Assembly (NCBI RefSeq): GCF_002854065.1
Contig: NZ_CP024151.1
DNA: 64,000 bases
Direction: 5' to 3' (one strand)
Source: Escherichia coli
GTDB lineage: Bacteria; Pseudomonadota; Gammaproteobacteria; Enterobacterales; Enterobacteriaceae
Shown here piece by piece: positions 1,050-8,838 of this stretch (its first letter is position 1; every line of letters starts with the position of its first letter). Both the position numbers and the translations under genes were made by a program. The notes below the pieces were generated by a model. That model had not been told where the DNA came from and searched no databases. It worked only from the letters and a program-made list of their open reading frames with translations.

Positions 1050-1280
1050 ATGAGAACCGTATCCATTTTTAAAAACGGCAATAACCGCGCCATCCGTCTG
1101 CCCCGCGATCTTGATTTTGAGGGGGTGAGCGAGCTGGAGATCGTCCGGGAAGGGGACAGCATCATCCTGCGCCCCGTCCGGCCGACCTGGGGCTCGTTCG
1201 CGAAGCTCGAAAAAGCTGACCCGGACTTTATGGCGGAGCGCGAGGACGTTGTCACCGACGAAGGACGGGTTAACCTGTGA
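1050..1280 (+). CDS. vagC: VagC/VapB-type antitoxin (SpoVT/AbrB fold)
   Basis: 76-aa ORF MRTVSIFKNGNNRAIRLPRDLDFEGVSELEIVREGDSIILRPV...; AbrB-like swapped-hairpin antitoxin; stop overlaps the start of the downstream PIN toxin gene. Confidence 0.85.
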   Translation: MRTVSIFKNGNNRAIRLPRDLDFEGVSELEIVREGDSIILRPVRPTWGSFAKLEKADPDFMAEREDVVTDEGRVNL

Positions 1281-1693
1281 ACAAAACGTATATGCTGGAC
1301 ACCAACATCTGCTCTTTCATCATGCGCGAGCAGCCGGAAGCCGTCCTGAAGCGCCTGGAGCAGGCGGTGCTGCGTGGCCACCGTATCGTGGTCTCGGCCA
1401 TCACTTATTCCGAAATGCGCTTCGGGGCTACCGGCCCGAAGGCCTCGCCGCGCCACGTGCAGCTGGTTGACGCGTTCTGCACCCGCCTCGATGCCATCCT
1501 GCCCTGGGATCGCGCCGCGGTGGACGCGACCACGGAGATTAAGGTGGCGCTGCGCCTCGCCGGGACGCCGATCGGCCCGAACGACACGGCGATTGCCGGA
1601 CACTCCATCGCCGCCGGTGCCGTGCTGGTGACGAATAATACGCGGGAATTTGAACGGGTACCGGGTCTTGTGCTGGAAGACTGGATAAGATAA
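1277..1693 (+). CDS. vagD: VagD/VapC-type PIN-domain toxin
   Basis: 138-aa ORF MNKTYMLDTNICSFIMREQPEAVLKRLEQ... with the N-terminal LDTN acidic PIN motif; 4-bp overlap with vagC. Confidence 0.85.
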   Translation: MNKTYMLDTNICSFIMREQPEAVLKRLEQAVLRGHRIVVSAITYSEMRFGATGPKASPRHVQLVDAFCTRLDAILPWDRAAVDATTEIKVALRLAGTPIGPNDTAIAGHSIAAGAVLVTNNTREFERVPGLVLEDWIR

Positions 1694-1766
1694 CGCTGTA
1701 AAACAAAACAGGCGGTCTGGCGCTGCCGGACACTCTTTCAGTCAGCGGTATATAAAGGAATAAAAG

Positions 1767-3329
1767 ATGCCTCTGATCACGCGGCTTATGCTGCAAAACT
1801 TTAAAAAGTTTCCGGAACTGGACCTGCGCTTCACTCATGACCGTAACATTCTGGTCGGGGACAATGAGTCCGGGAAAAGCACGATTCTGCTGGCCCTTGA
1901 CCTTGTGCTGAGCGACAGCCGGCACCGGGTCGAGGCATTGGGTGTGGAATCGCTCCTGTCCCAGTCAGCAGTCAGGCAGTTTCAGGAAGGTGAGCGCCGC
2001 GCCGATCGGTTACCCGTGCTGACAGCTGATGTTTTCCTGAGTAATGGGGGAGATCCTGACCTGAACGGCAGGCAAAATCTGGCGGGTATCGATGCGGATG
2101 GTCTCAGAATGCGCATTGCACCCATGACGGAGGAATACGGTCAGGATATACATCATGTCCTGCAGCAGGATCCCGATAATTTTCCCTATGAATACTATTC
2201 CGTGCGGTTCAGCACCTTCTCCGGGGGGCATTTTGCCGGCTTCAGACGCTATCTGCGCCATCTGCTGTTAGACAGTGCACGCATCGATAACGAGCACGCC
2301 GCACAGGAATATACGCGCACAGTTTACAGCGTCAATGTGCCGGTAGCCGATCGGTACCGGCTTGAAAACAGTTACCGGCAACAGAAAATGCACTTCTGCA
2401 CCCGGCATCTGTCAGCCATAAACGACACGCTGGATACGTATCAGTTTGGCGTGCGTTCCGGTGCTAAATCAGGTCTTGAGGCGAATCTGGACATTACCGA
2501 GGACGGTATTTCCATTCGTCACCGTGGAAAAGGAAGGCAGTGCTTCATCAAAACAGAGTTTGCACTGCAGCGGCATCAGCAGCAGGGAGAGCTCCACGCA
2601 CTGTTGCTTGAGGAGCCGGAGAATCATCTCAGCCATGTCAGTATGAAGAGGCTGGTTAATCAGCTTGCAACTGAACGGCAGACGCAGGTGTTTATTGCCA
2701 CACACAGCAGCCATATCTCATCCCGCCTCGATCTGCGTAAGGCAATCCTCCTCGGGTCTGCCCGACCGGTACTGATGAATGAACTTTCCGCTGAGACTGC
2801 CGCCTTCTTCATGAAAGCACCGGACAATAATGTGCTGGAATTTGCGCTGGCCAGACGTGTGCTGCTCGTGGAGGGGGATGCTGAGTTTATTCTGATCGAG
2901 GCCTTTTATCGCCGCCTGTATGGCAGGTCGCCGGAGGATGACGGGGTTCACATCATCGCTATCGGCGGAACGAGTTTCCGTCGTTATCTTGAACTGGCCC
3001 GTCTTCTGGAAAATCGCGTCGCGGCCCTTCGTGATAATGACGGCAACTATCAGCAAAACTGCGATGAACGCTATGCTGACGTGCTTTGTTCCCGCTCCCG
3101 GGTATTTGCTGATCGCGATAACACCCGATCCACATTTGAAATCTGCCTGTATCAGGATAACGCTGGTCTGTGTGATGCGCTTTTCCGCGGAACACGCCGG
3201 ACACTCACGGTGCAGGAATACATGCTGGCCAATAAGGCAGAAGCAGCATTCCGGCTGTTACAGCTGCACGCCGAAGAGCTGACAGTACCTGATTATATTC
3301 AGGAGGCACTGGCATGGATAAGAGAGTGA
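1767..3329 (+). CDS. OLD-family ATP-dependent endonuclease (N-terminal ABC-type ATPase plus C-terminal TOPRIM), GajA-like
   Basis: Walker A GDNESGKST near the N-terminus, Walker B-like LLLEEPENHL, H-loop IATHS, then TOPRIM signature LLVEGDAEFIL ... RDNDG. RBS AAGGAATAAAAG precedes the ATG. Confidence 0.8.
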   Translation: MPLITRLMLQNFKKFPELDLRFTHDRNILVGDNESGKSTILLALDLVLSDSRHRVEALGVESLLSQSAVRQFQEGERRADRLPVLTADVFLSNGGDPDLNGRQNLAGIDADGLRMRIAPMTEEYGQDIHHVLQQDPDNFPYEYYSVRFSTFSGGHFAGFRRYLRHLLLDSARIDNEHAAQEYTRTVYSVNVPVADRYRLENSYRQQKMHFCTRHLSAINDTLDTYQFGVRSGAKSGLEANLDITEDGISIRHRGKGRQCFIKTEFALQRHQQQGELHALLLEEPENHLSHVSMKRLVNQLATERQTQVFIATHSSHISSRLDLRKAILLGSARPVLMNELSAETAAFFMKAPDNNVLEFALARRVLLVEGDAEFILIEAFYRRLYGRSPEDDGVHIIAIGGTSFRRYLELARLLENRVAALRDNDGNYQQNCDERYADVLCSRSRVFADRDNTRSTFEICLYQDNAGLCDALFRGTRRTLTVQEYMLANKAEAAFRLLQLHAEELTVPDYIQEALAWIRE

Positions 3330-4336
3330 TATTTGCGGTTGCCGGCTCGGGCAAGACCACGCTGCTGATACAGCGGTTGAGTGAGGACCGGCGGACGCTG
3401 ATCCTGACCTTCACCGTGAATAATGAAGCGCATCTCCGGGCGCAGATTATCAGACGTTTTGGCTTTATCCCGGACGGGATCAGGGTGATGACCTGGTTTG
3501 AGTTTCTGCACGGTTTTTGCTTCAGGCCTTTCCTGCAGGAGCAGCTGGCATCGCGTGGGCTGAGCTTCGACCAGCCCCCACCCAGAATACCGCGCACGAA
3601 TGCCCGGCATTATCAGGATCCCGCCGGACGGCTGTATCACCGGAGGCTCGCACACTTACTCACAGCCCGGGGGCTGCTGCCGGATATCCGTACCCGGCTT
3701 GCCCGTTACTACGATGAACTGCTTATCGATGAAGTCCAGGACTTTGCCGGACATGACTTTAATTTTCTGCTGGAGCTCTGCCGCGCGGAAATCACTGTGC
3801 TCTGTTGCGGCGATTTTTATCAACATACCTTTGATACAAGCCATGACGGCAACGTTAATTCAACGCTGCACGATGACATTACGCGATATGAGGCCCGCTT
3901 CGACGCAGCAGGTTTCACGGTTGACCGGGACACGCTCAACCGGACATGGCGTTGCTCAGCTTCAGTGTGCGAGTTTATCACCGGACAACTGAACATCCGT
4001 ATCGCTGCCCATGGGATACATGCCACCCTGATTGAAACGATCACAGATGCAGAGCGCACAGCCACCCTGCACGCCGATAATACGGTGATTAAGCTCTTCT
4101 ATCGTGAACATCACCGTTACGGCTGCTATTCCATGAACTGGGGCGTCAGTAAAGGGCTCGACCACTTTCAGGATGTCTGCATTGTGATGGGATCTTCCCA
4201 CTGGAAGCTTCTGACCCGTCAGGAACTGGCAGCCCTTCCACCGTCGTCCCGTAACAGGCTGTACGTGGCATGCTCACGGGCGCGCGGCAACATTTATTTT
4301 GTTCCCGAAATTCATCTGCGCCGATTCCGGAACTGA
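3314..4336 (+). CDS. Compact UvrD/Rep-like SF1 helicase (340 aa), GajB-like partner of the OLD nuclease
   Basis: Motif I AVAGSGKTTLL, motif II LLIDEVQDF, motif III GDFYQ, motif VI-like VACSRARG; start overlaps the last 16 nt of the OLD gene and its AGGAGG RBS lies inside the OLD 3' end, indicating translational coupling. Confidence 0.75.
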   Translation: MDKRVIFAVAGSGKTTLLIQRLSEDRRTLILTFTVNNEAHLRAQIIRRFGFIPDGIRVMTWFEFLHGFCFRPFLQEQLASRGLSFDQPPPRIPRTNARHYQDPAGRLYHRRLAHLLTARGLLPDIRTRLARYYDELLIDEVQDFAGHDFNFLLELCRAEITVLCCGDFYQHTFDTSHDGNVNSTLHDDITRYEARFDAAGFTVDRDTLNRTWRCSASVCEFITGQLNIRIAAHGIHATLIETITDAERTATLHADNTVIKLFYREHHRYGCYSMNWGVSKGLDHFQDVCIVMGSSHWKLLTRQELAALPPSSRNRLYVACSRARGNIYFVPEIHLRRFRN

Positions 4337-4469
4337 GTCAGCTGCTTCTCAGTCGGGCACAATTCAGAAATAAAGCTGTATGGCCAACGATGTCACTTCA
4401 GGCTGGAAAAGTGCGGATCCGGTTTTGGTGGTTTTCGGATCTGCGGTGGAGAAATGAGAAAACAGGATA

Positions 4470-4620
4470 TGCGCAGCATATCCACATGCCACGCATCTGC
4501 ATAGGGCAGACATACGCATATGTCAGTCATCTGCATATGTTACACCTATACAGACCAGTCCGGCAGGCATATACTGCACATATGTACTCACACATCATGC
4601 ATGATCAGCCGGAGGAACAT
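4470..4620 (+). promoter_or_regulatory. Second vagCD-type operator/promoter region (diverged duplicate)
   Basis: Same family of CATCTGCATATG / GCATATG palindromes as at 940-1030, upstream of the second vagC copy. Confidence 0.45.
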
Positions 4621-4622
4621 CC

Positions 4623-4853
4623 ATGCGCACAGTTTCGATATTTAAAAACGGCAATAACCGCGCCATCCGTCTGCCCCGGGACCTGGATTTTGACGGCGTC
4701 AGCGAGCTGGAGATCGTCCGGGAAGGGGACAGCATCATTCTGCGTCCCGTCCGGCCGACCTGGGGCTCGTTCGCGCAGCTGGACAGGGCCGATCCGGACT
4801 TTATGGCGGAGCGTGAGGATGTGGTCAGCGATGAAGGACGCTTTGAGCCATGA
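4623..4853 (+). CDS. vagC: Second VagC/VapB antitoxin copy
   Basis: 76-aa ORF about 90% identical to the first copy (MRTVSIFKNGNNRAIRLPRDLDFDGVSELEIVREGDSIILRPV...). Confidence 0.8.
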   Translation: MRTVSIFKNGNNRAIRLPRDLDFDGVSELEIVREGDSIILRPVRPTWGSFAQLDRADPDFMAEREDVVSDEGRFEP

Positions 4854-4993
4854 AGAAAACCTGGATGCTCGACACTAACATCTGCTCGTTCATCATGCGC
4901 GAGCAGCCGGCAGCGGTGCTGAAGCGCCTGGAGCAGGCGGTGCTGTCAACGCCACGATGTTTGACCGTTATTTGCCATTTTCATGCCCGCTAA
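4850..4993 (+). pseudogene. vagD: Truncated vagD/vapC (PIN toxin) remnant
   Basis: MKKTWMLDTNICSFIMREQPAAVLKRLEQAVL matches the vagD N-terminus for about 32 codons, then homology ends at about 4945 where IS21-family-derived sequence begins; the reading frame runs into unrelated sequence and stops at 4993. Confidence 0.75.
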
Positions 4994-5003
4994 GATACTT
5001 TCG

Positions 5004-5787
<784 letters not shown>

Positions 5788-5791
<4 letters not shown>

Positions 5792-6429
5792 AACAGCTCC
5801 TCATAGGCACTCAGTGGTCGATGTTCCACCTGACTGACCTGCTGCCAGAGCGGGGCGTGATGCTCCGGCACTGTCTGCCAGCCAGACGATGCCGGACAGA
5901 GGCGATGTGAGGCCACCAGTTTCTCATTACTGTAGATCCGCAACTCGTCATCCAGCGATATTCGTATCGATACTGGCTGACCACACAGCGCTTCGGGAAC
6001 GCTGTAACGATTACCACCAACCTCGATATAGCTGTCCCAGGACACATGGCGGATGTCGAAGTAACTGGTATCGAAGTCCGTATCCGGTAACGGCTGCAGA
6101 TGTTCCTGCTCCAGCGCGAAGCGCTGTTCCGGCGTTTCTTTGAACTGGCGAAGCTCCCGTTTGTCAGCCACATCGGCTATCCATTGCTCCAGTTGTTGAT
6201 TAACATGAGTGAAGCTGTCGAACCTGCGGTACCGGACGAAGAAGTTCTCCTTGAGGTATTTCACCATCCGCTCAACCTTACCTTTTGTTCTGGCCCTGCG
6301 TGGACGGCATGCCCGTGGCAGGAAGTTATAGTGGTCGGCCAGCAACAGGAATCCGGAGTTGAACACGACTTTCCCGTTGTTATTCTTCAGCACCGCAGCC
6401 TTCTGGTTATCAACCAGCACCGTTTTCAC
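5788..6429 (-). pseudogene. istA: istA (IS21-family transposase) C-terminal fragment
   Basis: Translation ...[24 protein letters not shown]... is characteristic of the IstA C-terminal region; the N-terminal catalytic part is absent. Confidence 0.7.
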
Positions 6430-7158: not shown

Positions 7159-7273
7159 AAATTTTCCTTGCACATCCATTTTTTTGCGAATATTATTATT
7201 CCTGCTGAATATGATTCAATATCGCACGCTACTCATCCATCCCAGGATAATGAGTACATAGGTTGAAGTTTCA

Positions 7274-7301
7274 ACACCCCCATTACGGGGGTGTTTTTTT
7301 T
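7274..7301 (+). terminator. Rho-independent terminator
   Basis: 8-bp GC-rich stem ACACCCCC / GGGGGTGT with a 5-nt loop, followed by a T7 tract. Confidence 0.7.
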
Positions 7302-7776
7302 ACCAATAAACACAAATCACACCATCGCCATACTCTGTTTGCCAGACATCGATTGGTAAATATGCGTAACTCGCTATAATACAAAAAGAAAAATCAGAAC
7401 CAGAAACCAGTTTCCAGATAAAAAACACCCTCCCGAAGGAGGGGACAGACACATTCATATTTCCCAAAACAGGAATTTTTATTTTTATGACGCATTAATG
7501 AAGTTACTTCATCTCCAGTAGATTAACTTCATTTAAAGTGGCGATCAATCATATTTATTACGACTCTAAACTATTACAACAACCACAATAAGATATCACC
7601 TCAAATATAAAAGATAACTCTTACAAAAACGTTCCGAAAACAAAAAATACAGATAAACACCAATAAAAAACAGAAAACTCTTACACATTTAAAGATGGTA
7701 AAATAATATAGAACTGTTAGTCTAATGGAGAAGGCGCATCTGATTCAGAGCAATCTATTGCGAAGAATCAGAGTAA

Positions 7777-7815
7777 CAGGGCCCCATGATATAATCATGG
7801 GGCCCTGTTGCTTTT
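7777..7815 (+). terminator. Strong hairpin terminator (13-bp perfect stem)
   Basis: CAGGGCCCCATGA-TATAA-TCATGGGGCCCTG followed by TTGCTTTT. Confidence 0.6.
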
Positions 7816-8059
7816 ACAGATGTAAAAACGACCAATCATTTAACATCTGTTATCGGCACCGCCCCGGACGGGTTCGGCGCAAATATGGTATGGTACCAGC
7901 CCGGCAATTCACCTGCCGTGCAATCTGACGAAGCAGTACCGGCGTATGCAGATATATCGTCCAGACATATCTGCCGCATTCAGGCGGTGAGTAAAGCCTT
8001 CTCTCTCAAAAGAGGAGCAACAGTTATCCACAGATTCTGGGGATAACTGCGAAAAGAAT

Positions 8060-8200
8060 ATGTGCCAGGAAAGTCGGCTCCCGGGAAAAAGACCGCTGGC
8101 GGCGCAGCTGCTGGATACGAAAGCTGAGCTGAAAGGATCCCGGGAGGACGTCCGTAAACTTCAGTCCCTGGCCCGTCATGACGGGAAGGTGAAAAAGTGA
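8060..8200 (+). CDS. Small hypothetical protein (46 aa), first gene of an overlapping pair
   Basis: ATG at 8060; its TGA stop (8198-8200) overlaps the GTG start (8197) of the next ORF in a GTGA junction. Not in the ORF track because it is under 60 aa. Confidence 0.35.
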   Translation: MCQESRLPGKRPLAAQLLDTKAELKGSREDVRKLQSLARHDGKVKK

Positions 8201-8838
8201 ATGCGGACACCTGGACCCGCCTGCAGGCCTTCCGACATGCTCTGGAGCTGACTTCCTGTGAGGCTTCTCTCACCGCCGGGTATGATCACCTGAAGGATTT
8301 CCCGGCCGGTTGCAGCGAGCTGGCCAGCCAGACGCTGACTGATTATCTGACGGAAGACGGCAGCAACCTGTACTCCTGTATTGTCGGTATGCAGTGGGAT
8401 AATGGTCCTGGCAGATACGGCCACGTCATTGCCGCCCCTGCCAGGGACTATATCGACCTGACCCTTGATCAGTTTCCAGGCTATCATAACCGGATTGTGG
8501 CAGAGCCCGTTGAGTCCGGCGGACAGCTCGCGGCAGACCTCAACAGGGAGCCTGCCATCAGTACAGCTGATGGAATAGTGGCCAGCGCATCAGATAAGGT
8601 TAATTACATTACTGAACAGAAAAATCGCCAGCCAATGGTGATCATTACAGAATGTTACAAGCTGATCAGAATAACGGCAAGATTTATACCAATGTGCCAG
8701 TCATCTCAACTCTTCCAGCACCAGGTATTCCCTCGCTTATTTATCATTTCAGACGTTGGCTCCTGCAGTTTGTCCAGGAACACCTTAGATCGTTTAGCTA
8801 CTGACTGGAAGGTGACACTGTCCATCCTGTCGCTATAG
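8197..8838 (+). CDS. Hypothetical protein; 3' end uncertain
   Basis: 213-aa track ORF starting at GTG; no recognisable domain; the tail overlaps a convergent minus-strand ORF (8706-9026), so the true stop is uncertain. Confidence 0.35.
   Translation: MNADTWTRLQAFRHALELTSCEASLTAGYDHLKDFPAGCSELASQTLTDYLTEDGSNLYSCIVGMQWDNGPGRYGHVIAAPARDYIDLTLDQFPGYHNRIVAEPVESGGQLAADLNREPAISTADGIVASASDKVNYITEQKNRQPMVIITECYKLIRITARFIPMCQSSQLFQHQVFPRLFIISDVGSCSLSRNTLDRLATDWKVTLSILSL

Follow-up and report, generated by a model that had tools for sequence, protein, structure and literature searches.

A probable fossil of a kfrA-partner operon beside the RepFIB replicon of F-type Escherichia coli plasmids

Does a pair of overlapping open reading frames (ORFs) on an Escherichia coli plasmid form a working two-gene cassette, or is it what remains of one? 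The question is raised by positions 8060-8838 of a 64,000-nucleotide stretch of contig NZ_CP024151.1 (RefSeq assembly GCF_002854065.1), referred to here as the window, in which a 46-aa ORF shares the four nucleotides GTGA (8197-8200) with the start of a 213-aa ORF. The window carries the RepFIB repA gene followed by a tyrosine recombinase gene and belongs to an F-type IncFIB plasmid, with the pair lying 1.2 kb upstream of repA. A sequence-only reading had reported both ORFs and a convergent ORF running into the 3' end of the larger one, and had taken the overlap as the mark of a coupled accessory module of the kind common among toxin-antitoxin (TA) systems. All three frames and the overlap are indeed present in the sequence. 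The pair itself is best explained, with a probability of about 0.8, as a fossil of a kfrA-partner operon next to RepFIB, in which GTGA would be the inherited junction, the 46-aa ORF would be no gene, and the 213-aa ORF would be a deleted, chimeric copy of the partner gene that has lost the conserved Cys and is most likely non-functional.

Family assignment offered no entry to the locus. Pfam, NCBIfam and PADLOC placed none of the three ORFs (46, 213 and 106 aa) in a family, the sole match being a chance-level one to GajB (E 0.012) for the 213-aa ORF, and the Prokaryotic Genome Annotation Pipeline (PGAP) calls the 213-aa ORF alone of the locus, as a 'hypothetical protein' (WP_089533208, WP_000990665 or WP_000990667). 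The literature searched on uptR and on KfrA with IncFIB does not describe the locus. DNA alignment of the whole region with pO157 was uninformative outside the common RepFIB region, and protein-level and blastn comparisons were used in its place.

The product of the 46-aa ORF falls into two parts of different origin. Residues 13-46 match the C-terminus (ending LAAQLQDTKAELKEAREDGRQLQTELLALARQDGKVKK before the stop codon) of a 199-aa 'DNA-binding protein' of pO157, with 27 of 38 positions identical (71%; BLASTP E 8e-13) across a four-codon gap, and the pO157 protein is a clear KfrA_N member (PF11740; 71.9 bits against a cut-off of 26.1). When pO157 KfrA was used as a tblastn query, residues 162-199 were the sole part matched in the window, and in blastn the homology to each intact kfrA locus begins exactly at 8096. 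The first 12 codons show no kfrA homology, the segment that contributes them has no similarity to the DNA upstream of intact kfrA genes, and translation of the three plus-strand frames upstream of 8096 gave no KfrA-like sequence. The same segment is seen again at about 90% identity in two other loci (L028 and L029), directly beside a 5'-truncated pseudogene of the insertion sequence (IS) IS3, where the frame equivalent to the 46-aa ORF closes after 21 codons.

Since the match to the KfrA tail starts at 8096 and the segment 8015-8101 recurs elsewhere beside a truncated IS3, the 46-aa ORF is, on these alignments, a junction chimera of 12 codons from unrelated DNA and the last 34 codons of a truncated gene of the KfrA_N family of about 200 aa, and what had been read as a 46-aa protein does not correspond to a genuine gene. 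Of the coiled-coil tail it retains 34 C-terminal residues, and no Pfam match to the KfrA_N DNA-binding domain was found, so the ORF is a fragment rather than a member protein of the KfrA family. The two homologies share positions 8096-8101 (CTGGCG), which suggests a microhomology junction.

The four-nucleotide overlap has a longer history than the small ORF. The junction ...GACGGGAAGGTGAAGAAATGA... is conserved in the seven loci read at that point, four of them with an intact kfrA and three with the kfrA tail alone, and gene calls give the same overlap in seven further loci. Within this junction, the purine-rich, Shine-Dalgarno-like GGGAAGGTGA precedes the start codon of the 213-aa ORF by 7-16 nt. 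The start position is common to the whole partner family (MNADT...), the codon being GTG in the window and ATG in all relatives. Judged by this conservation, the GTGA overlap is the inherited kfrA/partner junction and not a product of chance. An arrangement of kfrA with a coupled partner near a replicon, as expected of a kfrA operon, is found in the ancestral form, which adjoins RepFIB in pO157, whereas the window keeps only the junction. The idea that the overlap marks a coupled accessory module thus holds for the ancestral pair, coupled through ATGA, and fails for the window copy, which consists of two fragments.

The 213-aa ORF has 103 relatives in a search of 5.8 billion proteins, most of them 264-268 aa long and encoded on Enterobacterales plasmids, with representatives from Citrobacter, Enterobacter, Klebsiella, Salmonella, Serratia, Pectobacterium and Cronobacter. 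They match approximately the first 76% of the 213-aa query, with E values from 1.8e-138 to 1e-20, and share the motifs FPxGCCELASQ, GHV and YIDLTLDQF. Against this family, the window copy carries an in-frame deletion of about 50 codons at about 8536-8538, which removes family residues ~125-175, and a further deletion of three codons, and its protein similarity stops after IITECYK. Comparison by blastn with a full-length Enterobacter copy (L010) gave homology over 8500-8535 and 8539-8662 and none thereafter, which sets the breakpoints at 8535/8539 and 8662/8664 and the deletion at about 170 nt of that copy. The full-length architecture of N-terminal domain, linker and C-terminal β-barrel is therefore missing from the 213-aa ORF, which is without residues ~125-175 and everything after ~217, that is, the last strand and helix of the N-terminal domain and almost all of the barrel. 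Because family homology ends at 8662 and the DNA of 8664-9003 matches other DNA, the last ~58 codons are read-through into foreign sequence. That 340-bp segment is 82% identical to DNA in two other IncF plasmids (L017 and L018), where it lies downstream of remnants of Abi-family genes. A MAFFT alignment had paired VGSCSLSRNTLD with VGSGVWSANRLD as if the homology extended into the C-terminus; this pairing was rejected, the DNA from 8664 on having a separate origin.

The conserved catalytic residues are also affected. Where the family reads GCCELASQ the window reads GCSELASQ; of the two adjacent Cys residues the second alone is kept in all subfamilies (the pO157 type reads SSCDLAS), so that Ser stands at the sole universally conserved Cys, and the Cys-His-Asp triad is incomplete, with His and Asp kept. 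In addition, the 213-aa ORF differs from the family at 12 of 59 columns of the N-terminal domain that are at least 90% conserved, while full-length members differ at a mean of 1.4 and at most 7 of about 72. The features of the locus are collected in the table.

Table. Positions of the ORFs, their component segments and neighbouring features in the window
Feature	Position	Strand	Remark
46-aa junction ORF ('gene 1' of the sequence-only reading)	8060-8200	+	ATG start; product MCQESRLPGKRPLAAQLLDTKAELKGSREDVRKLQSLARHDGKVKK
Segment unrelated to kfrA	8015-8101	+	Gives the ATG (8060) and first 12 codons (8060-8095) of the 46-aa ORF
kfrA 3' remnant	8096-8200	+	Last 34 codons and stop; 4 codons deleted relative to the pO157 copy
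213-aa ORF ('gene 2' of the sequence-only reading)	8197-8838	+	GTG start
Family-homologous part of the 213-aa ORF	8197-8662	+	Bulk of the N-terminal Cys-His-Asp domain; initial strand(s) of the barrel at the C-terminus
Read-through tail of the 213-aa ORF	8663-8838	+	Last ~58 codons; DNA of different origin
Convergent 106-aa ORF	8706-9026	-	Overlaps the 3' end of the 213-aa ORF; part of the foreign 8664-9003 segment, not of the cassette
Hairpin with U-run	7771-7813		Perfect 20-bp stem
Inverted repeat	8021-8049		Inside the segment unrelated to kfrA
DnaA box	8024-8032		Perfect consensus TTATCCACA, inside the inverted repeat
Second DnaA box	9637-9645		In the conserved region upstream of RepFIB repA
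RepFIB repA	10013-10990		Followed by a tyrosine recombinase gene
75-bp indel polymorphism	7668-7742		Just 5' of the hairpin
UptR small RNA	7204-7295	+	Rfam RF02568, full-length match
IS21 istA/istB remnant	5788-6429 and upstream	-	With truncated vapC beside intact vapB

Relatives of the whole locus give an independent view of its state. The 1.2-kb relic region is at least 99% identical across more than 300 plasmids, F (strain NBRC 3301) and pUTI89 among them, and 388 of the 5426 complete E. coli genomes carry it. Its closest diverged relative (L019/L020) is 92.6% identical over 7840-8811 and has the same breakpoints as the window. In this relative the small ORF is closed by TAG at codon 3, and the large ORF has an ATG start and is cut to 123 aa by two 1-nt deletions. 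The alleles P0004 and P0005 are frameshifted or truncated, P0004 being a further F-type one. The two ORFs are thus not intact together in L019/L020, and the small ORF, proposed as a coding unit, shows no coding conservation. Co-occurrence of the two genes in other genomes, which the sequence-only reading had named as a check, is found for the ancestral kfrA/partner pair in E. coli, Enterobacter, Citrobacter, Cedecea, Pluralibacter, Pectobacterium and Serratia with different flanks, and not for the pair in its window form.

The alternative that survives best holds that the 213-aa ORF is still a functional stand-alone gene, shortened, diverged, possibly non-catalytic or Ser-dependent and served by its own promoter, with the 46-aa ORF non-coding. 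We regard this as unlikely, yet a number of observations weigh in its favour and against decay. Over 300 F-type plasmids, and 338 of the 5426 complete E. coli genomes, have the frame open; PGAP calls it as a coding sequence, and it has a good Shine-Dalgarno sequence at a conserved start position and a usable GTG, so that expression is possible. His76, Asp87 and YIDLTLDQF are preserved, and in principle a Ser could serve as nucleophile. On the other side, the open frame says little about selection because the copies are at least 99% identical, which indicates recent spread, and frameshifts appear as soon as the nearest diverged relative and other alleles are considered. A catalytic domain that lacks its final strand and helix as well as the universal Cys, a C-terminal domain that is missing almost entirely and the foreign origin of the last 58 codons likewise speak against a working product.

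Substitution patterns and structure prediction point in the same direction. Between the window and L019, codons 1-118 of the large ORF carry 14 nonsynonymous and 7 synonymous changes, some of them at residues within the conserved motifs, and the ratio of nonsynonymous to synonymous substitution rates (dN/dS) is 0.61, a value below 1 which derives from 21 substitutions and is statistically indistinguishable from moderate constraint; the adjacent repA of the same lineage pair has 2 nonsynonymous and 13 synonymous changes (dN/dS 0.05). The AlphaFold2 (AF2) model of the 213-aa protein reached a mean predicted local distance difference test (pLDDT) score of 36 against 74 for the full-length homolog P0034, with alignments of unequal depth (19 sequences for the window protein and 70 for P0034) that temper the comparison.

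Expression signals were also considered. Upstream of the ORFs, a hairpin with a perfect stem (ACAGGGCCCCATGAT...ATCATGGGGCCCTGT) is followed by the U-run TTGCTTTT; with a folding energy of -38 kcal/mol (z -8), it resembles a strong intrinsic terminator, although a consensus terminator scan missed it. No σ70-like promoter was detected between this hairpin and the ORFs by a crude consensus search. The truncation that removed the 5' part of kfrA also took its promoter, which makes transcription of the relic doubtful. The 75-bp stretch of the indel polymorphism just 5' of the hairpin is shared by the window, F and the window-identical L001 and L008, and is missing from pUTI89 (L002).

We infer that neither ORF yields a functional product. 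A narrower version of residual function, in which the shortened, Ser-bearing 213-aa product continues to be produced and has been recruited to another role, such as that of a non-catalytic binder, seems quite unlikely. Still less probable is a role for the small ORF as a translated leader that, through termination-reinitiation, brings ribosomes to the GTG of the 213-aa ORF: the larger ORF keeps the overlap and the Shine-Dalgarno-like sequence ahead of it, and a weak GTG could gain from coupling, but the ATG at 8060 is not preceded by a Shine-Dalgarno sequence, the leader of L019/L020 is broken by TAG in the very relative whose second gene has an ATG start, and the downstream gene is itself decayed. 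The TA-like or other two-component module, in which the 46-aa product would neutralise or regulate the larger one, shares with coupled pairs such as type II TA systems (vapBC and ccdAB lie on the same backbone) a small upstream ORF, a four-nucleotide overlap with a larger one and a plasmid accessory region rich in TA genes, but it is largely refuted, since the small ORF is a chimeric gene fragment that lacks a ribosome-binding site and is stopped at codon 3 in L019/L020, no toxin or antitoxin homology was found by Pfam, NCBIfam or PADLOC, the pair is not conserved in its window form, and the true ancestral partner of gene 2 is a KfrA_N DNA-binding protein of about 200 aa.

The fossil reading gains its content from the operon elsewhere. 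In at least 12 other loci a KfrA_N gene of about 200 aa, ending in ARQDGKVKK before the stop codon, overlaps by ATGA with a partner gene of about 268 aa (206 aa in pO157). Loci with this four-nucleotide kfrA/partner overlap include pO157 (L006), Citrobacter (L009), Enterobacter (L010), Pluralibacter (L011) and Cedecea (L012), and further ones of E. coli/Enterobacter type (L021-L023), Pectobacterium (L024) and Serratia (L025-L027). The flanks of the pair differ from locus to locus and comprise a YobI ATPase, ParDE, Tn3, integrases and a colicin. With a full-length member as tblastn query, the partner family was matched in 1324 plasmid records, and a scan of species-representative genomes gave 8 loci.

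The partner also occurs without a full kfrA directly upstream, as in L004, and a short kfrA tail alone precedes it in L005 and before the second copy in L010. In L004 (Citrobacter braakii pF217-2, 1054-4807), the 268-aa family gene follows mobC and a gene for an 852-aa LPD7-domain protein, not kfrA, which hints at a link between the partner family and mobilisation functions. Two paralogous partner genes stand in tandem in L010 (Enterobacter genomosp. O, 2824-5792), where a kfrA of pO157 type, a 206-aa gene and a 66-aa ORF are followed by a kfrA-tail remnant (ending ARHDGKVKK before the stop, as in the window) and an intact 264-aa copy. The K. pneumoniae virulence plasmid pKP37-vir (L005, 4001-4795) has the partner gene split into three small annotated ORFs after the short kfrA tail; because of this split it appears to be a pseudogene, and the split form accounts for most of the 509 Klebsiella plasmid matches. 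Decay of the operon seems to be recurrent.

Two further observations concern the pO157-type operon. A third ORF of 66 aa, with a four-nucleotide overlap with the partner gene, is present there (L006:4618-4818) and also in L010 and L016; its first residues, MKIYHYTDLNGLKGIIESGSLWATHFSFLNDSNEL, are similar to the N-termini of DUF2971, HYD1-ART and DarT-like proteins (E 0.04-0.19), and it probably represents a further truncated gene; L018 has a full DUF2971 gene in the equivalent region. Proteins 100% identical to pO157 kfrA and its partner were found in contig JAIJJM010000018.1 (L014), labelled 'MAG: Collinsella sp.', which almost certainly derives from an E. coli plasmid and was wrongly binned into an actinobacterial metagenome-assembled genome (MAG).

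What kind of protein the intact partner may be was approached through an AF2 model of the 268-aa P0034 (70 sequences; mean pLDDT 74), which has an N-terminal α+β domain (1-161), predicted for the most part with confidence, then a disordered linker (163-202) and finally a β-barrel at the C-terminus (208-263). Among the structures listed for this fold, Atu2299 (2hly) scored 8.7, the SseI catalytic domain (4g29) 6.6 and protein-glutaminases (3a54/2zk9) 6.1-5.6, followed at 5.0-5.6 by Josephin, LapG (4fgo), arylamine N-acyltransferase, the thiol-protease-like domain of PMT (C3 domain, 2ebf), Ceg10, SpvD and transglutaminases, and by vasohibins at 4.9. All of these are papain/transglutaminase-like Cys-His-Asp enzymes, and Foldseek recovered the same superfamily weakly (vasohibins, PMT and Josephin at E 0.03-0.1). 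In the model the partner family has the corresponding predicted architecture, an α+β fold with the putative nucleophile at a helix N-terminus packed on a β-sheet. Conserved residues of the family include C44, H80 and D91 (P0034 numbering); C44, the sole Cys kept in the pO157 type, would be the nucleophile.

Profile evidence for this assignment stays below every threshold. The partner family reaches no Pfam or NCBIfam cut-off: YunG (PF24585) matches sub-threshold in 57 of 70 members, at 12.8-16.9 bits against a cut-off of 27 (best E 0.011), and Transglut_core (PF01841) matches one distant relative at 16.6 bits against 23, the relative having come from a search of 1.8 billion representatives that gave 450 clusters at E <= 1e-3. 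A profile search of PDB sequences returned nothing relevant, with an insignificant match of the C-terminal barrel to the MSL3 chromodomain (E 0.28). The barrel does match phage families of unknown function, such as phrog_1226 (E 1e-5).

Set against known systems, the ancestral upstream gene resembles the KfrA family (PF11740), including KfrA of IncP-1 RK2/R751 and IncU RA3, in being a true KfrA_N gene with a coiled-coil tail, in adjoining a replicon (here RepFIB) and in heading a small operon. The window departs from this family in holding the last 34 tail codons only, without the DNA-binding domain or promoter. The operon differs from known KfrA operons in that its partner is a predicted Cys-His-Asp enzyme and not an α-helical KfrC-type protein, and the window copy differs from transglutaminase/papain-like enzymes in lacking the conserved Cys, part of the domain and the C-terminal barrel. 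According to PMC7783346, KfrA proteins are oligomer-forming DNA-binding proteins that contact KfrC and the segrosome, and their effect on stability depends on the host.

A course of events consistent with these comparisons can be proposed. The ancestral operon would have encoded a KfrA-type protein of about 200 aa, with an N-terminal DNA-binding domain and a coiled-coil tail, that may have served, by analogy with IncP and IncU KfrA, as an autoregulated scaffold aiding plasmid maintenance. Through ATGA, kfrA would have been translationally coupled to the partner of about 268 aa with its predicted transglutaminase/papain-like domain, disordered linker and small C-terminal β-barrel. A rearrangement at 8095-8101 would then have removed the promoter and about 165 kfrA codons and joined the last 34 to unrelated DNA with an in-frame ATG. 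The partner gene would have lost about 50 internal codons, and a second breakpoint (8662/8664) would have cut it at codon ~155, leaving a read-through to a fortuitous stop at 8838. Replacement of Cys by Ser and of ATG by GTG and almost neutral evolution would complete the decay. By the KfrA analogy the ancestral operon probably served plasmid maintenance, and its enzyme might act on a protein of partition, replication or the host, either by cleavage or by post-translational modification.

The remaining features belong to the surroundings of the relic. The convergent ORF is annotated nowhere and had no Pfam or PHROGs match. Its counterpart is intact at 110 aa in an E. albertii plasmid (L018, ~2100-2440) and frameshifted in L017, a 1-nt deletion alters its C-terminus in the window, and its dN/dS of 0.40 is ambiguous; it may be a small gene or another relic. 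The segment 8015-8101 was considered as the left end of IS3, a PGAP pseudogene in L028 starting there, and this was rejected: in L028 the homology to IS3 orfA proper starts further in, which makes the segment no more than a flank of the 5'-truncated IS3. Inside it lies the inverted repeat CAGTTATCC-N11-GGATAACTG, which contains a DnaA box and is kept in L019 and L028. An origin marked by this box was likewise rejected, the 4 boxes of the window against 2.2 expected being not significant. Further upstream, the UptR small RNA (123.3 bits against a gathering score of 100; E 1.4e-21) sits in an 'unannotated' stretch between the IS21 remnant and the kfrA relic. The IS21 remnant and the truncated vapC make this neighbourhood a mosaic of broken mobile-element and TA genes.

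The apparent coupled pair would thus be two gene fragments, left where a mosaic F-type plasmid has recombined. The 213-aa ORF, whose annotation as a 'hypothetical protein' has spread widely, is best treated as a pseudogene, and the 46-aa ORF should stay out of catalogues of small proteins and antitoxins. Of wider interest, though outside the window, is the intact kfrA-partner operon, which is widespread and uncharacterised. K. pneumoniae virulence plasmids have the partner gene as a fragmented copy only, and pO157-type plasmids are among the carriers of the family, which was matched in more than 1300 plasmid records of Enterobacterales. The ancestral operon would represent an undescribed translational coupling of a KfrA-type scaffold to a predicted Cys-His-Asp enzyme with a phage-related C-terminal β-barrel. 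Its intact form would be a reasonable, if modest, target for studies of plasmid maintenance.

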